Notes: a model not told the origin generated them from the letters alone. A stretch of 64,000 nt of DNA from Planctomycetaceae bacterium (GCA_040374745.1 JBEITT010000014.1:4680-68679), one strand, 5' to 3'. Counted from the stretch's first letter, positions 6,383-55,466 are shown. Program-made: numbers and translations.

Positions 6383-8821
6383 TTATTCGCCGTTCAGCAG
6401 CCAGGATGCAATTTCTGCATCGGTCGGTCGGCCTTTACTGCCATCAAGTCGAAGCTGGGAATCTACACCTTCAAAGCGATAAATATCACTGATTTTCTGG
6501 GTGTCGAGTGAGCGGGATGGAGCCGAGATCCAGAGAGGCCCGGGAGCGGCCAGCGAAGCGGCACCCTGAAGACCGCCTGCCTGGGCCCAACCTGCGAATT
6601 TCAAACCGGCTGGAATGTAGCCGCCAAGTTTCTGGTCGTCCCAGCCTTCAAGCGAGATGAATGTCCGACCAATGTTTTTTACCAGTGGTCGCAGCCAGAG
6701 AGCCAGCGACCCACCACCATGCTGTGCAGCGATGTGAACCAGACGGGTGTCGGGGCGGCTCTGTGCAAATGCAATCACGCCTGCAAGATCCTGTGCATGA
6801 TCATGGGCTATCGAAGGGTTATAACATTCAAAATGAGCGGTTGCAGGGCGGGTGGTTGCAGACGAAACTGGTTCGAAATTTGATCCGACAAAAATTGGAT
6901 CAAATGCAATGACCGATGCACCGGATTTAAGAATCTCGCTGGCCAGTGGTTTGATTTCGCCGCTGGAGCCGATCAGCCCCGAAATCCCGCCGGAAGCATA
7001 ATAAACCACACTCACGCCGTTGAAGCGATCTGGGCGAAGTTCGACAACTGGAATATTGTCATTTTTGCCATTGCGGCCAATGTGAAATTTTATGATTTGA
7101 ATATTGGGGCCGAAGAGGTCAGTTGTTACTCTTGTCGATTTCAATTCGCCAGCCGTGGGGAAAGTGGCACCTGCACGCACGGTGTGAATGGTTCTGAGTG
7201 CATCCCGGCTCGCCTGCCATTCGGAAGCAGTGGTAGGTGAAAGCCATTTTTCAAGTTGGCGTTTCTGGATGGCGATCAGGTCTTTTTCCAGGGCTTCTGG
7301 CGATTTCATTTCGCGGGCGATACGGTCGTCTTCTTTGGTTGTAAGCAAGGTGTCGGCGGATTCAATTGTCAATTCAGGCTCGCGCAGGGCGGGCGAATCC
7401 TCACGGTTCTGAAGCCATCGGGCAAAGAAGGGATATACGGCGTTTCGCGAAATGCGATTGTAATTGTGGTCGAAATTGAAAATGGTTGCGGTGACAAGGT
7501 CGGATCGGCCATAAAGACCATAGACTTTGGCAAGGGCTGGATAAACAGACGTCATGGTGTTACTTGTCCAGTCGCCGGTGGCACCAACAAGCCTCATTGG
7601 TTTTGGTGCATGAATGGCCCCGATTTCAACGTTGTCTGTAAACAGTCGCATGCCGGCGGTATTTTCGCAGACGCAGCCACCCTGAAAGTTCTCGGAAATC
7701 ATGACGACGGGGGCTGCGGCGGCAATGCGATCATCAACGCCCGTCAGTAGAAATGTCTGGGTGCCGCCGCCTGATTCACCGGTGCAGCCGATGCGGGTGG
7801 CGTCAACGTCTGGCAGGCTTTCCAGCCAGTCGAGGGCACGAATGGAATTGAAAGTCTGGAATCCGACAAGATTCAGACCCCAGCGATTTAAATTATCATT
7901 GGAAAATTCATGCTTGAAAGGCTTGGAATCGTTGTAGCCGACCATATCATGCATAAATACAATGAAGCCGAGTTTGGCCAGGCGAATACAGCGGGCCTGC
8001 ACGGCTTCGTTCATGCGGCCATCAGCATAGTGGCCGTGGGGCGATAGAATGGCCGGTAGCTTGCCTTTTACATTTTTTGGTTTGTAGAGATTTCCGCAGA
8101 GATGAAAGCCCGGGACGGTTTCAAGGGCGACTTTTTCAATCGTGTAATCGCCGCGGTCGATTTTGCCGATAACCTTGGGGTGAAGAGGTGTTTTGGGCCA
8201 CATGGGCCAGATGCCAAGGGTAACGAGCAGTTGCTCGCGGAGGGCACGACGGCGGTTCTGCCACTCGACAAGAGTCGATGGTGGAATGAAATTGGCGCCT
8301 TCACGATTGGTGCGGATGGTGGTGCGGCGGGCGTCGGGTGCAATTTCAAAGCCACTCACGAGCTTTCTAAGTTGATCGGCAGCGGCAGGCGTGGCAGAAG
8401 TTGAAATCAGGAGCCAGTTAGGAGCCTGCGATTTCATTTCCGGTTTCTTCTCGGTTCCTCGGTTGATTTTCTTGCCGGAGACCTTGTATTCTCGGCCTGG
8501 AACGGCCTTTAATTCGCCGATGGAAATGAAATTCCATTTGTCAACCTTGTTGGTGGCCGGGCCAGTGGCTTCCAGCTCAATTTCATGGTCTTTCAGGCCG
8601 GCCTTCCAGCCACGACCGGAAAGGTCGATGGCGAAGAGATAAACGGGCTGATCTTTGCCGACAGAGCCGGAGGGTAAGGTGAATCGGGCTTCATTTTCAA
8701 CGATTGAGAAGCCCGTCAAAATGGCGGAATGGGCAGTTTCGTTTTTTTCCTGTGCTGCCATAGGCAATGACAAAACCATTGCAGAGAGGCAGGCAAGGGT
8801 GATTTGGGCGAGGCGTCTCAT
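6383..8821 (-). CDS. secreted alpha/beta hydrolase (acetyl-xylan-esterase / dienelactone-hydrolase-like)
   Basis: Nucleophile elbow GCTGESGGG. Signal peptide MRRLAQITLACLSAMVLSLPMAAQ begins at the internal ATG 8821; the track ORF extends to 8899 without signal logic. Confidence 0.7.
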   Translation of the reverse strand: MRRLAQITLACLSAMVLSLPMAAQEKNETAHSAILTGFSIVENEARFTLPSGSVGKDQPVYLFAIDLSGRGWKAGLKDHEIELEATGPATNKVDKWNFISIGELKAVPGREYKVSGKKINRGTEKKPEMKSQAPNWLLISTSATPAAADQLRKLVSGFEIAPDARRTTIRTNREGANFIPPSTLVEWQNRRRALREQLLVTLGIWPMWPKTPLHPKVIGKIDRGDYTIEKVALETVPGFHLCGNLYKPKNVKGKLPAILSPHGHYADGRMNEAVQARCIRLAKLGFIVFMHDMVGYNDSKPFKHEFSNDNLNRWGLNLVGFQTFNSIRALDWLESLPDVDATRIGCTGESGGGTQTFLLTGVDDRIAAAAPVVMISENFQGGCVCENTAGMRLFTDNVEIGAIHAPKPMRLVGATGDWTSNTMTSVYPALAKVYGLYGRSDLVTATIFNFDHNYNRISRNAVYPFFARWLQNREDSPALREPELTIESADTLLTTKEDDRIAREMKSPEALEKDLIAIQKRQLEKWLSPTTASEWQASRDALRTIHTVRAGATFPTAGELKSTRVTTDLFGPNIQIIKFHIGRNGKNDNIPVVELRPDRFNGVSVVYYASGGISGLIGSSGEIKPLASEILKSGASVIAFDPIFVGSNFEPVSSATTRPATAHFECYNPSIAHDHAQDLAGVIAFAQSRPDTRLVHIAAQHGGGSLALWLRPLVKNIGRTFISLEGWDDQKLGGYIPAGLKFAGWAQAGGLQGAASLAAPGPLWISAPSRSLDTQKISDIYRFEGVDSQLRLDGSKGRPTDAEIASWLLNGE

Positions 8822-9023: not shown

Positions 9024-12000
9024 ATGATCAGAAGACTTTGCGCGGGCTTGGCCGTGTTTCTGGCCGTTGCCGGCCTGACGATCAACTCAGCCGACTGGAG
9101 CCCCGGCTATAAGCCACCTGCTTTCGCCATTCGCGACGCCAAGATCGTCGTAAAGCCTGGCCAGGCCATTGAAAAGGGCACTATCGTGGTGCGCCGGGGG
9201 CTTGTCGAGCAAGTGGGCAAGGCCGAAGAAGTGAAGCTGGCGGCCGACACCTTTGTGGTTGATGGCAAAGGGCTTACGGTTTATCCGGGCTGGATCGACG
9301 CCTACACCTTGAATGGTCTGGGCTCAGGCGTGACACGATCTAAAACCGGCACGGGACGGAATTTGCCGGTGATTGACTTTTCATCGCCATTCACGCCGCC
9401 GGACGACCGGATTGGGATCACGCCAGAATTTCAGGTGGCTGAATCGCTGGCACTTTCCGATGGCACGGCAGAAGGCAGGCGAAAACTGGGCTTCACGTCG
9501 CAGATTGTGGCTCCGGGCGGTGCGATTCTGACCGGTCAGGGGGCACTGGCATCGACTACGGGATACCCTCGCCGCGAGATTATTATTGTGCCGGAAGTCG
9601 GCCTGCATGTGAATTTGAGGCCACCTTTTGAGCCAAACCCGGCCCCGACCACGGCATCGCCGACACCTGGGCCGGGCGGATTCCGGTTTCGAGGTGGTGG
9701 CAGTTCGGGAGGGCCCACGGGCTATCCTTCGGCCCTGATGGGGATTATCGCTCATTTACGGCAGAATGTTCTGGATGCCCGGCACCATCGGCAGCAGCTT
9801 GAGCATTATGCCAAACATGGTGGCAATCGCGTGGCTGCTGACCCGGCTCTTGACACGATTCTGGCGGCGATCGACGGTAAATTACCGGTCTGGTGGCAGG
9901 CCGAGTCGCAGGACGAGATACACCGGGCACTTGATTTATCAAAGGAATTTGGCTTTAAGCCGGTGATTGTAGGCGGGCGAGAGGCTTATAAGGTGGTGGA
10001 CCGGTTGAAAGCGGAAAAAGTGCCGGTGATTCTGAAGCTGACCCATTCGGCCAAGCCGAAGGTGCCGACAAAAGAGGAATATGCAGCAAAGAAGATTGAA
10101 GAACGAAATGAGCCGCTGCGATTGCTGGAAGATCGGCTGGCCCAGTGGAAGAAGCGTGTGGCCGGGCCTGGTCTGCTTCATAAAGCTGGCGTGAAAATCA
10201 GCTTTTCAACTGATGGTCTGCAGCGGTCAGATCAATTTACCGAAAAGGTGCGAGACCTGATCGCCGAAGGCTTGCCTGAATCGGCAGCCCTTGAAGCGAT
10301 GACGCTGAATGTGGCTGAATTGGCTGGCGTTGGCAAGAGCCTGGGCACTTTGGAAAAAGGCAAGGCCGGGCATCTTGTGGCACTGACTGGCGACTTGAAT
10401 GACGCCAAGGCCAAAGTGCGTCTGGCGGCGGCCGACGGGCTGATGTTCGACTTTGACGCACCAACTGTATTTCCGAAAAAGGCAGTGGCTGGCGGACCTG
10501 GCGGTGGAAGTGGCCAAGGTGGCCTTGGTGGCGGCGGAGGTCCGGGTGGGCGTCGGCCGGATGCAACCAAGAAAGGCGGCGGGGGCGGAAGAAGACCTCC
10601 TGAATTTGACGAATACCAAACGGGTGCGACCCAACTTTCGGCCCGTGACTTGATCCGTGGGGAAGCTGCTGAGGAAGAAGTGGCCGAAGTGGCCGAACTT
10701 CAGAAGGACGAGCCACAGAAGCCTGAGGCGAAAAAAGGCGGCGACAGGCCCGAAGGCGGGCGGAATCGGCCAGAACGTGATATTGAAAAGCCGAAGGGCG
10801 ATCGGCCTGCAGGGGGCCGCGAGAGACCCCAGGGCAAGGATCAGCCGAACGGAAAAGATGAGCCAAAGGGAGACTCAGCCAAATCAAAGGATGCTGCGGA
10901 AAAAACGAAGCAGCAGCCTGCCAAACCGGCCAAACCGTTTGTCGATACGCCAATCGAGCTTGAGGTGGACCGGGCGATTGGCAAGAAAACAGGCGGTAAT
11001 GTGCTGATTCGCAATGCCACGGTGGTCACGGTATCGAAAGCGGGCATTCTGCCGAAGGCTTCGATACTGGTTCAGGGGGGCAAGATTGCCGCGATTGGCA
11101 CGGACCTGAAGGCACCCGAAGGCGTGATGGAGATCAATGCCGAAGGGCTTTATGTAATGCCGGGCATGATTGACACGCACTCGCACATGGCGATTCAGGG
11201 CGGTGTGAACGAAGCGACGCTTTCGATCGTGCCGGAAGTGCGGGTGGCCGATGTGATTGACGGCGATGACCCGGCGATTTATCGGGCACTGGCGGGTGGC
11301 ACCACGGCGGCGCGGCTTCTGCATGGCTCGGCCAACACGATTGGCGGGCAGGATGCGATTATCAAGTTGCGGCCAGGGCACCCGGGTCGGGATATTCTGT
11401 TGCGAGACAGTAAGCGGCCTCAGGGCGTGAAATTCGCCCTGGGTGAGAACGTGACCCGGCGGACCAACCGCTTCCCAACCACGCGGCTGGGTGTAGAAGC
11501 CACAATTGAGCGAGCGTTTCAGGAAGGCAAGGCCTATGCCGATGCACAAAAGGCCTGGGAAGCGGCCAGCAGGAAAGACCCGGCCACAGCAGGCCCGCCA
11601 CCCCGCCGCGACTTGCGGCTTGAGGCCCTTGCCCGGATTGTAGGAGGCGACATCAAGATTCACAGCCACTGCTATCGGGCCGACGAGATTTTGATGCTCC
11701 TGAGAACGGCCGAACGGCACAATGTGCGCGTGCAGTCGCTGCAGCACGTGCTGGAAGGTTACAAAGTGGCAGCCGAAATTGCGGCCCACGGTGCCAGTGC
11801 TTCGACTTTCTCCGACTGGTGGGCATATAAGGTAGAGGCATTTGACGCCGTGCCCGCCAATGCGGCGATTTTGACCGAGGCCGGGGCCAATGCGGTGATC
11901 AAGAGCGACGATGCCGAACTGGTGCGGCACCTTAATCTGGAAGCTGCAAAGTCCGTCAAATATGGGGCGATGCCTGAAGAACAGGCACTGGCACTGGTAA

Positions 12001-49580: not shown

Positions 49581-50186
49581 ATGACCACACCCGCCAGTGA
49601 CACTCGCCTTTTCTGCGTTTTTTGTGGCAGTCAGTCCGGTGCCCGCTCGATTTATTCCGAAGCGGCTAATGCGGTGGGTTATGAAATTGCACGGCAGGAG
49701 ATGGGCCTGGTTTACGGGGGCGGCAAGGTGGGCCTGATGGGCCAGGTGGCTGATTCAGTGCTGGCTCATGGCGGGCCAGTGGTGGGTGTGATTCCTGATG
49801 TGCTGATGGTCAGCGAGCTGGTGCACGAAGGGGTGACACGGCTGGAGGTAGTGCGATCGATGCACGAACGCAAGGCCCGCATGGCCGAGCTGGCCAGCTT
49901 TTTTCTGACCATGCCTGGCGGCATCGGCACTTTTGAAGAGTTTTTCGAGATTTTGACCTGGGCTGTGCTGGGTATTCACCAGAAGCCAATTGGATTATTG
50001 AATGTCGATGGCTATTTCGACCCGATCCTGAGCCTGCTAAGGCACGCGGTAGAGGAGAAATTTCTACGCCCGCAGCATCTTGATCTGATACTTGTTGGCG
50101 AAGACCCCGCCGCTCTGGTGAACAAACTCGCCACGCACGAGCCACCCTCGCCGGGCCGATTGTGGCTTGATCTCAAACAATCGTAA
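49581..50186 (+). CDS. LOG-family (TIGR00730-type) nucleotide phosphoribohydrolase
   Basis: VFCGSQSG, GLVYGGGKVGLMG, and the PGGIGTFEEFFE motif. Confidence 0.9.
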   Translation: MTTPASDTRLFCVFCGSQSGARSIYSEAANAVGYEIARQEMGLVYGGGKVGLMGQVADSVLAHGGPVVGVIPDVLMVSELVHEGVTRLEVVRSMHERKARMAELASFFLTMPGGIGTFEEFFEILTWAVLGIHQKPIGLLNVDGYFDPILSLLRHAVEEKFLRPQHLDLILVGEDPAALVNKLATHEPPSPGRLWLDLKQS

Positions 50187-50188
50187 GT
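50127..50188. repeat. direct repeat copy A (3' end of LOG gene)
   Basis: Hand alignment with 52211-52272 gives 55 of 62 positions identical. Covers the last 19 codons, the stop, and 2 nt. Confidence 0.85.
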
Positions 50189-52210
50189 GAGTTCGTTTGG
50201 TTGTTGAGTGAATGAGTAATATTACTTGTCAAGATTGGTATTAGATAATTCGGCGTAGTCGTGAAGTTGCTGAACTTTGAATTGTTTGTCGATTTCAACT
50301 CGTTGCATGATCTGATCTGGGTAGGGCAGCACGTATGATTGTGAATTTTCTTTTTTCAAGTGGGTTACAATCTCCTGTGTTTTCCTGAATTTTTCCGCGT
50401 TCTCCATCCAGAACAAAATGTCAACGTCGATCACCTGAATATCCATTCTCCAACTGTCTTTTTTCTGAAAATAAACAAGAGGTTTGCCGAATGTAAAATC
50501 GGTGATAATATTTGTCGTTTTGTTTGGATTTACTGGTATGGCCTGGTCGATTTCATTGATTAAATGCTTGGGATTATGAAAATGAAAATCGAAAGGCACA
50601 AAATAATAGGTGGATGGCCTCCAGTGATTGACACGAAGTTCGGGGACGATGCGAGGTACCAACTCAGAGGTAATTAAACCGACTGAAAAATAAAACGCTA
50701 AATTGATAAACGGGATTGCAGCGATCAGCTTGATTGCATTTCGTTTCGAGATATTGATCTCCTGCAGGACGCATGAAAAAATGATGGAAAGGCTTGGTAG
50801 AGCGATACCCATCATGAGAATTCTGCGCTGGATCATATAAGCTGACGTGAACAACATGGTTGAAAAGATGATAAAGAAGTGAACTGATAAATTATCGATG
50901 GATAGCCTTTTTACTTTTCTGATATTTGCTGCGGCGATGAGAAAAACGATGGGATATTGAAATACGATCCAGGCAAAAAATAAGACCAGTCCTTTGGGGA
51001 GACTTCTCAAATTGACGTAGGCAGTGAAAAATGTGTTTAATTGATCGGCCAAAGTTGTACTGGTTTTATTCGGAGACATGAGAAATGCAAAAAAAGGAAT
51101 TAAAACACTTGCCGAGCCGGATAATGCAATCAGTGTATGCTTAATAAATATCTTTGCTTTATGTTTCAATAATAACGAGGGCAATAATACAACAGAAAAT
51201 AAAATGACTGAAAGAGTGTGGTTGAGTAATGATAATGCCAGAAATACACCTGTAAGATAGCTGTCTTTATCTCGTGGACTCGTGGTGTTGTATAGTTTCT
51301 GAAATAACATTAAAACAAGCATCCATAATACTATCAGCAAACCATATGATTCCTGTATACAAAATACAAATAATGAGGTGTTTGAAAAGCCAAACAATAG
51401 ACAGGCTATAATACGAATTCTTTTACTGAGCGTATAGTGACTCAATAACTGGTACAATAATGCAACAGAAGCAGCACCACTTGCGACAGAGATTAGAGAA
51501 AGTGCAATGTGAGGTGCCATGCCAGTGATGGTCGTGATGAAATAACCCAGAAAAATGAGCAGGCTGTGATGGCCCATTCCAGTTGTGAGAGAACGCACGC
51601 CGAAATCGCGATCAAGAACATAGAGAGAGAGTTTTGACGAATCCCCCCATAGCGGTTCTCTGGCCATAAGCAAGCCGTAGAAAGCAAAAAGCAGAGCGAA
51701 AAGAGTCATGCCCGTGAAATCACGATGCTTAATGGCTGTCTCACTGGAATCGATTTGATTAGTCTGAATGCTTGCAGAAAGATGGTTCATGGCAACGATC
51801 AGCCTTCTGACGAAAAAAGTCTCGCATGTCCAGGCAATTATCAAATCGGCCCGGCTTGATGTTATTTTAATCAATCTCAGTTCAAGTTTCCACATGATCC
51901 AGGTTATTGTTTCATGAGTAAAGATCTCGACTTTCGCACTATTAATTCAAATTTCGATTTGAATTTGCAATTACTCTCAATGGCAAGTTAGACGCTATCT
52001 GGTTCTTCTAAAATCTCTATCGATTTTCGCCTCTATGAAAAGGCCGTCATCGAGCATCTTGACAGGTGTTCAAGCCAATGTCTCATGACAGGGACGGACC
52101 AATAAATCGCGTACCCGCTTTTCGTGAACTTCTGCGAGTCTTTCCAGCCCAAATGACGACGCCCACCTTCCGCAACTTCAGTCAAATCGCCGCCGGATGG
52201 CTCTTTGCCG
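50189..52210. mobile_element. AT-rich inserted segment 1 (putative integrated island, no recombinase seen)
   Basis: Bounded by repeat copies A and B. A hand-counted 50-nt sample gave ~38% GC versus ~56% for a 50-nt sample across the 3' end of the LOG gene (repeat A). Confidence 0.45.
50222..51895 (-). CDS. polytopic membrane protein, GT-C / DUF2723 (TMEM260-like) glycosyltransferase-like
   Basis: A 557-codon ORF in AT-rich DNA is unlikely to be spurious. About 10 hydrophobic helices, a first-loop segment EPLWGDSSKL...GMGHHS reminiscent of the DUF2723 WDSGE...HPPG region, and a soluble C-terminal ~130 aa. Likely start ATG 51790 (MNHLSAS). Confidence 0.6.
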   Translation of the reverse strand: MWKLELRLIKITSSRADLIIAWTCETFFVRRLIVAMNHLSASIQTNQIDSSETAIKHRDFTGMTLFALLFAFYGLLMAREPLWGDSSKLSLYVLDRDFGVRSLTTGMGHHSLLIFLGYFITTITGMAPHIALSLISVASGAASVALLYQLLSHYTLSKRIRIIACLLFGFSNTSLFVFCIQESYGLLIVLWMLVLMLFQKLYNTTSPRDKDSYLTGVFLALSLLNHTLSVILFSVVLLPSLLLKHKAKIFIKHTLIALSGSASVLIPFFAFLMSPNKTSTTLADQLNTFFTAYVNLRSLPKGLVLFFAWIVFQYPIVFLIAAANIRKVKRLSIDNLSVHFFIIFSTMLFTSAYMIQRRILMMGIALPSLSIIFSCVLQEINISKRNAIKLIAAIPFINLAFYFSVGLITSELVPRIVPELRVNHWRPSTYYFVPFDFHFHNPKHLINEIDQAIPVNPNKTTNIITDFTFGKPLVYFQKKDSWRMDIQVIDVDILFWMENAEKFRKTQEIVTHLKKENSQSYVLPYPDQIMQRVEIDKQFKVQQLHDYAELSNTNLDK

Positions 52211-52272
52211 CTCGCCTCACACGATCCACCCTCGCCCGGCCGCTTATGGCTTGATCTCAAACAGTCGTAAGT
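52211..52272. repeat. direct repeat copy B (orphan copy of LOG 3' end)
   Basis: Translates to LASHDPPSPGRLWLDLKQS*, versus the LOG C-terminus LATHEPPSPGRLWLDLKQS*. Confidence 0.85.
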
Positions 52273-52343
52273 TGTATTTGAAATTAACCGCAGAATTTCA
52301 TCGCCGATCATCAATATTGTTGTATAAACAAATTTCACCTGCC

Positions 52344-52406
52344 ATTTGCCCGGCGGGCCCGGTGGCGGTATGATCGGGCAATACACCGGCCGGAACTGCC
52401 ATGATT
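52344..52406. repeat. direct repeat copy C (orphan copy of aminoacylase promoter/leader)
   Basis: Hand alignment with 53676-53738 gives 57 of 63 identical. Contains TTGCCC-17 nt-TATGAT at 52346-52374. Confidence 0.85.
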
Positions 52407-52435
52407 TTTTTACAAGTCTTATTTTGTAAATTTCT

Positions 52436-52741
52436 TCATGAATCGAGGGTTAAAACTTTTGCAAGTATTTCCGGGTTGCCAGTCAAAGCCTTATAAGCAT
52501 CATCTTCGCTATTCAGCGAAAGTTCAGCAAAAACAAAATCGGGATTTAAAAGTTTCAATTCCGCAACTTTTTGAATATCATTCAGGATTGCATTTGTGGA
52601 TTTTGCCATAAAATCCGGCGTTATGGCTGACCAATCAACTCGCAGCAAAGGTGGGTATTCTTTTTCAAGCTCAGTGAGCTGTGCAATCTGTTTTTTTCTA
52701 ATCAACCCAAGTTTGTTTGCTTTTTCAATTGTTAATCCCAA
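52436..52741 (-). CDS. hypothetical protein (possibly the 3' part of a TGA-interrupted 137-codon gene)
   Basis: 101-codon ORF with a TTG start and no RBS. The same frame is open upstream to an ATG at 52849, interrupted only by TGA at 52763-52765. Confidence 0.35.
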   Translation of the reverse strand: MGLTIEKANKLGLIRKKQIAQLTELEKEYPPLLRVDWSAITPDFMAKSTNAILNDIQKVAELKLLNPDFVFAELSLNSEDDAYKALTGNPEILAKVLTLDS

Positions 52742-52886
52742 TAGTTTTTTGGCCTCAGTATGTCATTCCTGAAATGCTATCTGAGCAGGCATTAGATTGC
52801 CCTTAAGCGAATTCTCATTTTTCTTAATTCTTTTTTCCAAATACAACATAGTTTTCTGTAATTTCTCAGTTTTTAATTTTGCTTTT

Positions 52887-53441
52887 TTATCTGAACGGAA
52901 AAAAAAGATAAATTATAATAACTGTAAAAAGGGGTGAAATAAGAATAGTAAACATTATTAAGTGGTTTACAAATTGGTTATTAGAGTTTTCGGAAGCCAA
53001 CTCGTCCGAGATTTTCGAAAATTCGTATTTAAGCGATGAATAAACAGAAACAGGCTCGACTAAATCGTTTAAACATGCATTCAATTCGACCAGACGATTT
53101 GAATGCATATATTTTTGTAATTTTAATTTTGAAAAAACATAATTTGCATGATCATTAATAATTCTGCTGTAAAATTTATTTAAAAGGAACTCAAACCGAC
53201 CCTTTGCATCGCTATTCAAAAGCCATTGCTCTTCTCGCTGGGCTATGGCGATCATCTCCATCTTCTGATTATGCTTATTTTGCGCATGCGCCTGAGCGTG
53301 AAGTATCTTTGTTTGAGCAATTTGATGAGCTTCCATCAGTTCCCGGGAGGCTCTCTCTTCCCAAAGATATGCATTATTAGCTAAGTCTCTACCAAATTCA
53401 GAAAAATGCTTTATGCCTTTACTGTCTCGATATTGCGACAT
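52887..53441 (-). CDS. hypothetical tail-anchored membrane protein
   Basis: 184-codon ORF in very AT-rich DNA. Helical Gln/His/Lys-rich body and a C-terminal hydrophobic helix LIMFTILISPLFTVIIIYLFF. Confidence 0.45.
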   Translation of the reverse strand: MSQYRDSKGIKHFSEFGRDLANNAYLWEERASRELMEAHQIAQTKILHAQAHAQNKHNQKMEMIAIAQREEQWLLNSDAKGRFEFLLNKFYSRIINDHANYVFSKLKLQKYMHSNRLVELNACLNDLVEPVSVYSSLKYEFSKISDELASENSNNQFVNHLIMFTILISPLFTVIIIYLFFPFR

Positions 53442-53675
53442 GTCGCTATCTCACGATTCAAGTCAATGGACTACCACACGATCTTCAAAATTGACCAGTT
53501 ATAGTAATTATCTGAGGTTTCTGTCACTTTTCGAAAAAAAACAATAATTGCAGCGTGCTATATGCGATAAACAATACTTATGTATAGATTTATGAGAACT
53601 ACTGGCAAATAAAAAAAACGCCTGACCCTGAATTAAACCACAAGAAGTCATATTGAAATATTACTTTTTCAGAGT

Positions 53676-53738
53676 ATTTGCCCGGTGGGCCCGGTGGCGG
53701 TATGATCAGTCGATACACCGGCCGGAATTGCCACGATT
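53676..53738. repeat. direct repeat copy D (promoter/leader contiguous with aminoacylase gene)
   Basis: See copy C. Ends 30 nt upstream of ATG 53769. Confidence 0.85.
53678..53706 (+). promoter_or_regulatory. sigma-70-like promoter candidate for the D-aminoacylase gene
   Basis: TTGCCC (53678-53683), a 17-nt spacer, and TATGAT (53701-53706), 63 nt upstream of the start codon. Confidence 0.4.
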
Positions 53739-53768
53739 CAGTCCAAAATCTACCCGCCAGAGGCCGAT

Positions 53769-55466
53769 ATGTCGCCCAGAATTCGCCCATCGCTGTTTGC
53801 GTTTTTTGCTCTCGTGCTTTCAATGTGTACAAATTTTGATGTCGCCAGGGCAAAAGATCAGGATGGTTATGACCTTGTGATCAAAGGCGGGCGAATTGTC
53901 GATGGCACTGGCAACCCGTGGTTTTTTGGTGATTTGGCAATCAGTAAAGACCGTGTTGTAGCGGTGGGCAAGTTGCCCGGACTACCTGCAAAACGTACGA
54001 TCGACGCGACTGGCATGGTGGTCACCCCCGGCTTTATCGACATTCATTCCCATTCTGACGATCTTCTGCTGGAAGACGGACACGCCCAGAGCAAAATACG
54101 CCAGGGTGTGACGACCGATATTCTGGGCGAAGGGCGTTCGGTTGGCCCCAACCAGGGTAAGTTGGCACCACAGGTGGCCAATGTGCGTGGCCAGAAAATT
54201 ACATGGACGACCATGGCCGGCTATTTTGACGCGATTGACCGGCTGGGCAGCAGCATTAATGTGGCAAGCTATGTCGGGCTTGATAACCTGTGGGAATGCG
54301 TGATGGGCAAGTCGCACGCCAGGCCCAATCCTGCACAAATCGACGAGATGAAAAAGCTGCTGGATGAGGCCATGGCCGAAGGGGCACTGGGTTTGTCGTC
54401 CATGTTGATGATGCCGCCGGGGTCGCTGGCCACAACTGACGACCTGGTTCAGCTTTGCAGCGTGGTGAAAAAGCACGGTGGTATCTTTTCGTCGCACATT
54501 CGCAGCGAAGGGCTGGATATTTTTGATTCAGTCAAGCAGGTGATCGAGGTGGCCGAGCTGGCCGGCGTGCCGCTGGACATTATTCATATTAAAATTGCCG
54601 ACGAAAAGCTGTGGGGCCGCATGAATGAAGTGGTCGGTCTGATTGAAGCCGCCAGGGCCCGTGGCGTCAATGTTCAGGCCAATGTTTATCCTTACACCCG
54701 AGGGAATAATAACCTGGCCAGCATCATTCCGCCCTGGGCCCATGAGGGCGGCAACTCTGCAATGATCGCCCGGTTGAAAGACACGGCTGCCCGGCAACGG
54801 CTGAAAAGCGACATCAAACAGGGCATTGATGGCTGGTATAACCACTACACGGCGGTGGGCGGCGACTGGTCGCGCATGCTCATCAGCGGGCAGGGGCCTT
54901 ATCAGGGGCAAACGATGGATAAGGTCATCGCCAGCAAATCGGCCGGAAGGCAGCCCGCACCCGACCCGCTGGACGTGCTTTTTGACGTATTGATTGAGCA
55001 GAACGGAAGTGTGCCGACAGTTTACGCTCATCATGAAGAACGTGACATGAACCTGGCCATGCGTCAGCCATGGTGCTCAATTGGTTCTGACGGTTCGGCT
55101 TACGCAATCGAAGGCCCGTTGCGAAGGGGCAATCCTCACCCGCGTAACTTTGGCACCTTTCCGCGAGTGCTTGGCGTATATGTGCGGGATAAGCAGTTGC
55201 TTACGCTTGAAGACGCGGTACGCAAGATGACCTCGCTGAACGCCGCGCGGGTGGGTATCACCGATCGGGGCACACTCAAGGCCGGTAATTTTGCCGATGT
55301 GACCATTTTTGACCCGAAGACGGTGGTTGACCAATCGATATTTACGGCCCCTTTTACTTACAACAAGGGAATCAACCAGGTGATTGTCAACGGCGTGGTG
55401 GTGCTTGATGGTGAACAACACACGGGTGCCATGCCGGGGCGGGCCCTTAGGCGAAAAAGCCCCTGA
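53769..55466 (+). CDS. N-acyl-D-amino-acid deacylase (D-aminoacylase) family amidohydrolase, exported
   Basis: Signal peptide, then [33 protein letters not shown] and the metal motif [11 protein letters not shown]. Confidence 0.88.

Follow-up and report, generated by a model that had tools for sequence, protein, structure and literature searches.

Imperfect direct repeats at a flexible island site in a planctomycete genome resemble scars left by DNA exchange among related species

Two pairs of imperfect direct repeats, A/B and C/D, located between a LOG-family gene and a D-aminoacylase-like gene in a 64,000-nucleotide stretch of planctomycete DNA (hereafter, the window), seem to be scars left when related planctomycete species exchanged DNA at a variable hot spot of gene insertion, rather than sites where two mobile elements attached. 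This junction is a flexible genomic island site in uncultured freshwater Gemmataceae-like planctomycetes, at which species carry either nothing or different single-gene AT-rich cassettes. The best explanation for the arrangement found in the window, and a reasonably probable one, is a single one-sided import of a tract of sister-clade DNA next to a resident island, designated seg1; the locus would then be a common type of genome island whose history happens to be unusually legible.

Repeats, cargo and recombinase search

Computed alignment reproduced the repeat pairs described in the initial annotation, with 55/62 identical positions for A and B and 57/63 for C and D (Table 1), and B, the 71-nt spacer and C form one contiguous 196-nt block, as had been described. 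Gapped local alignment added nothing convincing outside these limits for either pair, and the repeat edges are therefore sharp. Patterns of the repeat cores (≤3 mismatches) occur in exactly two copies each in the window, where none were expected from shuffled sequences, and among 188 loci fetched from public metagenomes the cores are restricted to this junction; a dispersed repeat family (REP/MITE-like) was rejected on these counts. The reading frame of B was confirmed (translation LASHDPPSPGRLWLDLKQS followed by a stop codon), and the seven A/B differences had been correctly sorted into four synonymous third-position changes, one E to D replacement, and two changes that together give T to S. 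As had been proposed, the divergence between A and B is that of coding sequence and not that of a recent target-site duplication. Single-strand folding of C, D and the promoter block of the empty site gave z-scores of about 0, with no hairpin signal; an integron cassette array with attC sites was rejected because of these values for C/D and because A and B consist of normal coding sequence of LOG. D presumably represents the functional promoter copy for the D-aminoacylase gene.

Table 1. Features of the junction between the LOG and D-aminoacylase genes, in window coordinates
Feature	Position	Strand	Description
LOG-family gene (TIGR00730 / Lysine_decarbox)	49581-50186	+	Intact, resident lineage; Pfam 4.5e-42, NCBIfam 3e-58
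Repeat A	50127-50188	+	Resident LOG 3′ end: last 19 codons, stop, 2 nt
Seg1 proper	50189-52032	-	AT-rich resident island, GC 0.395; one intact gene and its upstream region
Seg1 gene	50222-51895	-	Intact, 557 aa, multi-pass membrane protein
X	52033-52210	none	GC 0.54, host-like; hypervariable between strains; ends at junction 52210/52211
Repeat B	52211-52272	+	Truncated LOG 3′ end, sister-clade (L060/L174/L187) ancestry; decaying pseudogene fragment
Spacer	52273-52343	+	LOG/D-aminoacylase intergenic DNA of sister-clade type
Repeat C	52344-52406	+	Orphan promoter-block copy, TTGCCC-17-TATGAT, now directed into seg2
Seg2	52407-53675	-	AT-rich cassette, GC 0.344; single gene, about 52442-53441
Repeat D	53676-53738	+	Promoter block upstream of D-aminoacylase gene; consensus-like -35/-10
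Leader and first ~35-40 codons of D-aminoacylase gene	53739-53890	+	Sister-clade ancestry
D-aminoacylase-like amidohydrolase gene	53769-55466	+	Pfam Amidohydro_3 7.7e-23; body resident lineage

The GC content of seg1 as a whole (50189-52210) is 40.4% and that of seg2 34.4%, as compared with about 55% in the flanks and with a minimum of 45–46% and a mean of 54% in same-sized windows elsewhere in the stretch. The AT-richness ascribed to both segments thus holds overall, but not for the final ~170 nt of seg1 (52040-52210), in which GC reaches 54%. GC3 is 0.31–0.43 in the cargo ORFs vs 0.52–0.67 in neighbouring genes, and among the fetched loci the DNA of seg1 and seg2 was found only at this locus. 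The seg1 protein has just four distant homologues (36–40% identity), which lie within glycosylation/exosortase clusters, and shows weak GT-C hints (TMEM260-like, PMT_2); seg1 is 98.5% identical at the nucleotide level among strains, vs 99.7% for the core. The X allele of L173 is 79% identical to that of the window and contains indels, with flanks 96–100% identical; an ORF of 45–58 aa in X is without homologues and carries a frameshift in L173, and the contig ends of about 10 assemblies cluster in X. In the seg2 gene, an A8/T8 run near 52894-52899 holds a frameshift that divides the gene in two; it was seen in five assemblies, and the resulting ORFs of 184 aa and 101 aa in two frames jointly span the full-length protein P0020 (331 aa) with 59–64% identity; no family was assigned to this gene by Pfam, NCBIfam, PHROGs or PADLOC.

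In agreement with the initial annotation, no integrase or transposase signature was detected by these four resources in any cargo ORF. The gene calls for roughly 10 kb to the left and to the right also contained no recombinase, and a tblastn search with a planctomycete integrase returned nothing in the window. A "transposase-like" ORF at 52066-52254 was discarded, being without homologues and frameshifted in L173, as was a transposon or insertion sequence, given the lack of a transposase and of terminal inverted repeats and duplications that are 62–63 nt long and about 10% diverged.

Alleles of the junction and ancestry of its parts

The ADH-Rieske-LOG synteny is kept in all relatives, among which at least four alleles of the junction are found. 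In the empty allele (L060 and L174), the LOG gene, 167 nt and the D-aminoacylase gene follow one another and each repeat is single-copy. The L187 allele consists of an intact LOG gene followed by the spacer, C and seg2, without seg1; the L176-type allele (L176–L185) contains a different gene, encoding NHL repeats with a weak PEP-CTERM match, and no repeats; and the composite allele is carried by all ~25 contigs of the window species. This different content at one site bears out the insertion hot spot that had been suspected. The junction of C with seg2 is common to L187 (GATT followed by TCTTTACAAGTC) and the window (GATT followed by TTTTTACAAGTC), which agree at about 97% of positions over the start of seg2, and the presence of seg2 varies among very close relatives (L187 vs L060/L174). 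A resident allele predating import, with the order LOG-seg1-X-D-aminoacylase gene, was not found among the relatives' loci.

The window flanks are 89–93% identical to the L176 type and 85–89% identical to L060/L174, and the body of the D-aminoacylase gene shares 91% identity with L176 and 85% with L174. B-spacer-C, at 94–95% identity to L060/L174, and D with the leader and the first ~35 codons of the gene, at 94–100%, fall inside the L060/L174 sister clade. The spacer is identical to L060 and to L174 at 68/72 positions each, while those two differ from one another at 6/72; identity to L174 is 60/63 for D, 30/30 for the leader and 90/96 for the first 96 nt of the gene. Between L060 and L174, the junction regions diverge at about 2.7 times the rate of gene bodies, vs a junction/body divergence ratio of 0.36 between the window and L174 (Fisher p = 1.7e-6). 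A change-point was detected in the D-aminoacylase gene, with 10 differences in 198 nt before 53874 vs 64 in 527 nt after it (Fisher p = 0.002); sister-clade ancestry begins at 53676 and persists to about 53890, from 53895 onward the closest grouping is with the L176 type, and a homologous crossover lies at about 53874-53895, inside the gene. The block between the segments, previously regarded as a preserved empty site, is indeed organised exactly as the real empty site of L060 and L174, but it is imported sister-clade DNA rather than preserved native sequence.

A is of resident type and B of sister-clade type, each along its whole length. A has the same synonymous states as the L176-type species at three repeat positions (9, 33 and 36) and two private synonymous changes at positions 27 and 54, and B agrees with the sister clade (L060/L174/L175/L187) at positions 9, 27, 33, 36 and 54. 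The same sequence as B ends the intact LOG gene of L187, where spacer, C and seg2 follow. Position 3 is C in both A and B, G in the sister clade and T in L176; what looks like a private 5′ change of B, at position 7, is strain-specific decay. The LOG gene end is ~99.8% conserved within the window species, and A is conserved among strains, while B and C decay within the species: B accumulates strain-specific changes, with its stop codon lost in L007, and position 53 of C differs in L173.

Proposed history and competing explanations

In the one-sided import that we infer, the resident layer would have comprised the LOG gene with its own 3′ end (A), with the AT-rich seg1 gene directly behind it and X next; X may be what is left of the D-aminoacylase leader and first 19 codons of the resident lineage. 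The second layer would be a ~1.7-kb sister-clade tract, from 52211 to about 53890, derived from a donor with the order intact LOG gene, spacer, promoter copy C, seg2, promoter copy D, leader and start of the D-aminoacylase gene, so that seg2 would have travelled with the tract. The right end of the tract would have been joined by homologous recombination within the D-aminoacylase gene and the left end by an illegitimate join at 52210/52211, through homology-facilitated illegitimate recombination or a comparable one-sided process. By chance, the fragment taken up would have started 57 nt upstream of the donor LOG stop codon, leaving B as the remnant. The A/B "repeat" would accordingly be one gene end in two orthologous alleles from two species, which would explain its synonymous divergence pattern. 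Since L187 has LOG-spacer-C-seg2 without seg1, seg1 was probably not inserted between A and B; rather, B would have arrived after seg1, as the truncated left end of the imported tract. The C/D duplication around seg2 would have been present beforehand in the donor lineage or have formed there, either as the same kind of overlap scar or through duplicative insertion by an unspecified mechanism, and an att-type or other duplicative insertion may apply to this pair.

X is unrelated to LOG and there is no homology across 52210/52211, where one shared G (1 nt of microhomology) can be read from the window sequence. Against the import stand this 1-nt microhomology, the nearly equal overlaps (62 nt for A/B vs 63 nt for C/D), which the import treats as coincidence, the C that A and B have in common at position 3, unlike both the sister clade and L176, and the lack of the resident pre-import allele among the relatives' loci. 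The right seg2 junction is also out of view in the donor lineage, so that C-seg2-D may not have moved as one unit. The X alleles are 21% apart between near-identical flanks, which hints at another, unseen lineage with X beside B; a single event in the window species would then be too recent or too local to account for the junction.

An alternative is that two independent site-specific integrations occurred, similar to that of e14 in icd: either cassette would have been a small integrative element with an attP of ~62–63 nt, one matching the LOG 3′ end and the other the promoter, the element replacing what was displaced and the recombinase having been lost or acting in trans. The direct repeats exactly flank each AT-rich segment, a functional gene end and promoter are kept, a real empty site exists, seg2 is polymorphic between L187 and L060/L174, and the near-equal repeat lengths suggest a common mechanism. 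Relative to L060/L174, the private changes of D (11, 35) and C (33, 53, 59) also loosely fit one crossover, with one exception among the five sites. A duplicated, replaced gene end is known for e14 or phage 21 in icd and for tRNA-targeting islands (PMC6379469); as in icd, the gene 3′ end is duplicated here with mostly synonymous differences, and the gene keeps a functional copy with a pseudo-copy at the far end of the insert. Unlike in icd, no integrase is present, the copies are not reciprocal hybrids, and the "displaced" copy comes from the lineage of another species and not from that of the host. Two att-type integrations with element-borne replacement ends, as put forward in the initial annotation, are unlikely: the reciprocal attL/attR hybrids are not seen for A/B, A being resident and B sister-clade at all informative sites, and the "native" parts are sister-clade DNA, so that an extra import would be needed whose crossover coincided with the att crossover. 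In addition, the change at B position 7 reflects strain-specific decay, no recombinase occurs in the segments or nearby, no attP-like copy of either repeat core was present in the viral contigs searched, A/B and C/D have no significant common core, and no hairpin signal was obtained. The unoccupied attB-like site in L060/L174 is equally expected under a recombination model.

It is improbable that the repeats are long target duplications formed in situ by capture at ~62–63-nt staggered breaks (e.g., by end-joining), as exact copies that diverged in place. The similar length of both duplications, the rapid decay of B and C within the species, and the mere 3/63 differences (11, 35, 59) between C of L187 and D of the window, from which C and D may have begun identical, are in keeping with such an origin. 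However, for A/B a gene end with ~99.8% conservation within the species would have had to acquire five synonymous changes, three of them converging on L176-type states, the sister-clade ancestry of the block and gene start would be left unexplained, and no bacterial mechanism is known to give ~60-nt duplications. Improbable, too, is a dedicated mechanism by which single-gene AT-rich cassettes enter promoters or the ends of genes and ~62–63 nt of target are duplicated in the process; if real, it would regenerate the host gene end or promoter with a recombinase in trans or independently of any recombinase, and would account for the near-equal overlaps, the shared cassette orientation and the seg2 polymorphism, with the sister-clade ancestry being a separate, superimposed recombination. 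An assembly chimera of contigs from two co-occurring species is very hard to credit: the locus does combine DNA of two related species, and numerous contigs end close to 51.9–52.1 kb, but the X/B junction, the whole block and both seg2 junctions recur with strain-level variants in independent assemblies (L005, L007, L015, L016, L173, L013 and L014; two pipelines, different samples), and no shared sequence at 52210/52211 could cause a false join.

Comparison with known systems

Homology-facilitated illegitimate recombination was reportedly described by de Vries and Wackernagel in 2002 and by Prudhomme and colleagues in 2002. Its features are found here as a homologous switch in the D-aminoacylase gene, a non-homologous join at 52210/52211 and the donor-type allele of L187; in contrast to those cases, microhomology at the join is minimal and the mechanism is read from sequence alone. 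In the "displacement" arrays of Vibrio T6SS effector-immunity loci and of Rhs C-terminal displacement, one-sided recombination stacks displaced gene ends (PMC5361080). The one-sided import resembles both in combining one homologous anchor with one non-homologous join, and the arrays in stacking incoming DNA beside the resident sequence with orphan fragments of a conserved neighbour gene; unlike the arrays, it is anchored downstream, within the D-aminoacylase gene, and has orphaned a promoter and a 62-nt gene end instead of a toxin/immunity module.

In aquatic bacteria, flexible islands are exchanged when homologous recombination takes place in the core genes next to them (Lopez-Perez et al., 2014, PMC4033161). 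The cassettes of the present locus are single genes and the hosts uncultured planctomycetes, unlike in those islands, and a second island layer with partial flank copies would have been added rather than swapped because one end of the exchange was illegitimate. As in flexible islands, the site is fixed between conserved core genes, the cargo is atypical and differs among close relatives, the recombination tract reaches into a flanking core gene, and the cargo carries cell-surface hints, namely a membrane protein with weak glycosyltransferase similarity and the NHL-repeat gene with its weak PEP-CTERM match.

Layout and composition of the junction

Two pairs of imperfect direct repeats lie between the LOG gene and the D-aminoacylase gene: A and B, copies of the LOG 3′-end, enclose the AT-rich segment seg1, and C and D, copies of the promoter block of the D-aminoacylase gene, enclose the AT-rich segment seg2, with a 71-nt spacer separating B from C. 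The repeats lie exactly where the initial annotation had placed them, and its identities of 55/62 (A/B) and 57/63 (C/D) were reproduced; the repeat core patterns (≤3 mismatches) occur in two copies each in the 64-kb window and zero times in shuffles. Gapped local alignment identified no convincing further homology beyond the limits of A/B and C/D. Independent assemblies, made by two pipelines from several samples, show the order A-seg1-B-spacer-C-seg2-D again and differ from one another at strain level; the layout is therefore not an assembly artefact.

The DNA enclosed by the repeats is compositionally foreign. The GC content is 40.4% for seg1 and 34.4% for seg2, versus 45–46% for the lowest same-sized windows elsewhere in the window, and GC3 is 0.31–0.43 in the cargo ORFs versus 0.52–0.67 in neighbouring genes, a discontinuity in both base composition and codon usage that bears out the AT-rich composition described initially. 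As had been observed for the two segments, no recombinase signature was detected in seg1, in seg2 or in the genes within ~10 kb on either side.

Features of the LOG–D-aminoacylase junction (positions in the window)
Feature	Position	Strand	Description
LOG gene	49581-50186		TIGR00730/LOG-family
A	50127-50188		Last 19 codons, stop and 2 nt of LOG gene
seg1 gene	50222-51895	minus	557 aa, single intact gene of seg1
X	52033-52193		Host-like GC, right end of seg1
B	52211-52272		LOG-end repeat paired with A
C	52344-52406		Promoter-block repeat paired with D
seg2 gene	~52442-53441	minus	184-aa and 101-aa ORFs, single ~331-aa gene, frameshifted
D	53676-53738		31-93 nt upstream of D-aminoacylase gene; contains TTGCCC-17-TATGAT
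D-aminoacylase gene	53769-55466		D-aminoacylase-like amidohydrolase

Alleles and ancestry of the repeat copies

The source is an uncultured planctomycete whose nearest public relatives are MAGs with the labels Isosphaeraceae, Frigoriglobus or Gemmataceae. Among members of the window's 90% LOG protein cluster, four alleles of the junction were found. In the empty allele (sister-clade loci L060 and L174), the LOG gene is followed by 167 nt and the D-aminoacylase gene, with a single LOG end, spacer and promoter block, an order colinear with B-spacer-C and the leader in the window. The seg2-only allele (L187), whose LOG is of the same type as that of MAG contig L175, has an intact LOG gene, spacer, promoter block and seg2, without seg1, and its C|seg2 junction is the same as that of the window. 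In the different-cargo allele (L176–L185), an NHL-repeat gene of 318 aa with a weak PEP-CTERM match occupies 1.5 kb of AT-rich DNA; this allele lacks a duplicated LOG end or promoter and differs in the D-aminoacylase N-terminus. The composite allele has the window's arrangement and appears fixed in the window species, being carried by ~25 contigs. The empty junction hypothesized in the initial annotation occurs in L060 and L174. In L176 (8607–10143), as in L177–L185, which represent the sister species nearest to the window, the NHL-repeat gene starts 2 nt past the LOG stop and the D-aminoacylase N-terminus is replaced; therefore, the left edge of the variable region matches that of the window species almost to the nucleotide. 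A JGI metagenome scan with LOG returned distant relatives only (≤84% identity), and the D-aminoacylase loci L018–L021 differ in synteny and are uninformative on this junction.

In genes of both flanks, the window is nearest to the L176 type (89–93% nucleotide identity), the L060/L174 clade being at 85–89%. B-spacer-C is 94–95% identical to L060 and L174, and relative to the same loci D is 92–95% identical, the leader 97–100% and the D-aminoacylase gene, over its first 96 nt, 89–94%; identity to L174 falls from ~95% to ~87% at 53874–53895, downstream of which the window groups with L176. This likeness of the junction does not reflect conservation, because the same regions differ by ~6.5% between L060 and L174, whose gene bodies are 97–98% identical (junction/body divergence ratio 2.7, versus 0.36 for window–L174; Fisher p = 1.7e-6). 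At repeat positions 9, 33 and 36, A agrees with the L176 type, and it has two private synonymous changes besides, and B has the sister-clade state at positions 9, 27, 33, 36 and 54, an apparent private change at B position 7 being limited to some strains. B and C gain further strain-specific changes, including loss of the B stop codon in L007, and A is conserved. A and B are one gene end from two lineages, and are neither target duplications nor reciprocal attL/attR hybrids; the hybrid reading seemed to hold with L060 as the sole outgroup and was dropped after the addition of L174, L175, the L176 type, L187 and strain alleles, which placed A with L176 and B with the sister clade.

Origin of the composite allele

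The history proposed for the composite allele bears the signature of homology-facilitated illegitimate recombination. In the simplest history, the resident chromosome would already have had seg1 immediately after LOG, and a ~1.7-kb tract would have come from an L187-type sister-clade donor, starting 57 nt before the donor LOG stop and running through the spacer, C, seg2, D and the leader to end within the D-aminoacylase gene. On its right, the tract would have been joined by homologous recombination inside that gene, and on its left without homology at 52210|52211. The synonymous-biased divergence of A and B described initially follows from their two-lineage origin: A would be selected as the working LOG end, and B would have been selected for as long as it belonged to the donor's gene and is now decaying. 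The locus is a flexible island of a known kind, scarred by recombination, and the site between its two flanking core genes is a hot spot. The composite resembles the stacks of displaced gene ends described for Vibrio T6SS and Rhs loci (PMC5361080), and the locus fits the picture of flexible islands that undergo exchange through flanking core genes (PMC4033161).

C and D could be an overlap scar of this sort that had arisen in the sister clade beforehand, or could derive from a duplicative or site-specific insertion of seg2. The pair may initially have been identical or nearly so, because C of L187 and D of the window differ at just 3/63 positions; the presence or absence of seg2 is polymorphic among very close relatives, which is compatible with either origin. 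Under the import model, the near-equal overlaps of 62 and 63 nt are a coincidence, and a small residual chance is left that seg2 (less likely seg1) entered via a dedicated mechanism that duplicates a ~60-nt target. Site-specific integration of the kind seen for e14 in icd (PMC6379469) has a surface likeness to A/B but fails there on its tested defining features, since no recombinase is present and A and B are not reciprocal hybrids. The insertion hot spot of the initial annotation is retained, and its att-type integration is not supported for A/B. The best alignment for a recombination core common to A/B and C/D was not significant (p ~0.05), and a search for terminal inverted repeats, or for likeness among seg1, seg2 and L176-island ends, gave only a 10-nt match, non-significant after multiple tests. 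Transposon, dispersed-repeat (in the 64-kb window and 188 loci) and integron-attC readings fail their tests (attC-like hairpins, z ~0), the Rfam match for structured RNA is at chance level only, and a phage origin was rejected, the 101-aa seg2 ORF and both repeat cores being absent from viral contigs.

The locus reveals no new mobile element or recombinase; it is an unusually readable natural record of variable-island growth in uncultured planctomycetes, with intermediate alleles (empty, one cassette, different cassette, composite) visible in public metagenomes. It also calls for caution, as a gene end that is imperfectly repeated, in direct orientation, on either side of AT-rich DNA mimics att sites: the two copies can be alleles of one sequence from different species, united by one-sided recombination, and island-finding tools that rely on such repeats to call att sites would misclassify this locus.

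Stretch X and the cargo genes

X, immediately left of the 52210|52211 join, has two alleles in one species that are 21% apart with indels, and its flanks are 96–100% identical; at most of the differing sites, L173 has A/T where the window has G/C. Contig ends of ~10 assemblies cluster in X because it has two divergent alleles between near-identical flanks. The 45–58-aa gene called in X by annotation pipelines is not real. An ORF at 52066–52254 was rejected as the N-terminus of an IS transposase: it has no Pfam/NCBIfam match, no plasmid match and zero homologues among 5.8 billion proteins, and is frameshifted in L173. An ATG at 52153 is followed by MTTPTFRNFSQIAAGWLFA, which resembles a signal peptide start; X may be what is left of the leader and first 19 codons of the resident D-aminoacylase gene.

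The two ORFs of seg2 jointly span, in two frames, the full length of a 331-aa relative, and the frameshift, at an A8/T8 homopolymer near 52894–52899, is shared by 5/5 independent assemblies; the gene either has become a pseudogene or is prone to slippage (phase-variable). Family-database searches found no annotation for this family, which combines a conserved N-terminal region of ~150 aa with a transmembrane helix; in relatives, the C-terminal domains vary.

The seg1 product is a multi-pass membrane protein with a soluble C-terminal domain and four homologues only, all distant (36–40% identity), which sit in glycosylation/exosortase clusters on GC-rich planctomycete-like contigs. Its domain matches are weak and GT-C-type (TMEM260-like; PMT_2 in one homologue), and its predicted structure (pLDDT 49) is too poor for fold search. 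Within the window species, the gene shows 98.5% nucleotide identity and is ~5 times more diverse than the flanking core genes (99.6–99.8%); in the L001 assembly it is broken into 125-aa and 409-aa ORFs. On a 64% GC contig (L082, 4469–13250), four paralogues of 531–555 aa lie close to genes for a GFO/Idh/MocA oxidoreductase and a DegT aminotransferase, a neighbourhood that suggests that the family works in sugar modification. On an unrelated planctomycete-like contig (L083), a distant homologue adjoins a tyrosine integrase, and ~150 nt from the 3′ portion of a GT2 glycosyltransferase gene (7509–7656) recur 1.5 kb downstream (9048–9197; 78% identical). Between the copies lie a gene for an HNH_2 endonuclease and an ORF of 79 aa; this is a further case of gene-fragment displacement, here within a glycosylation island.
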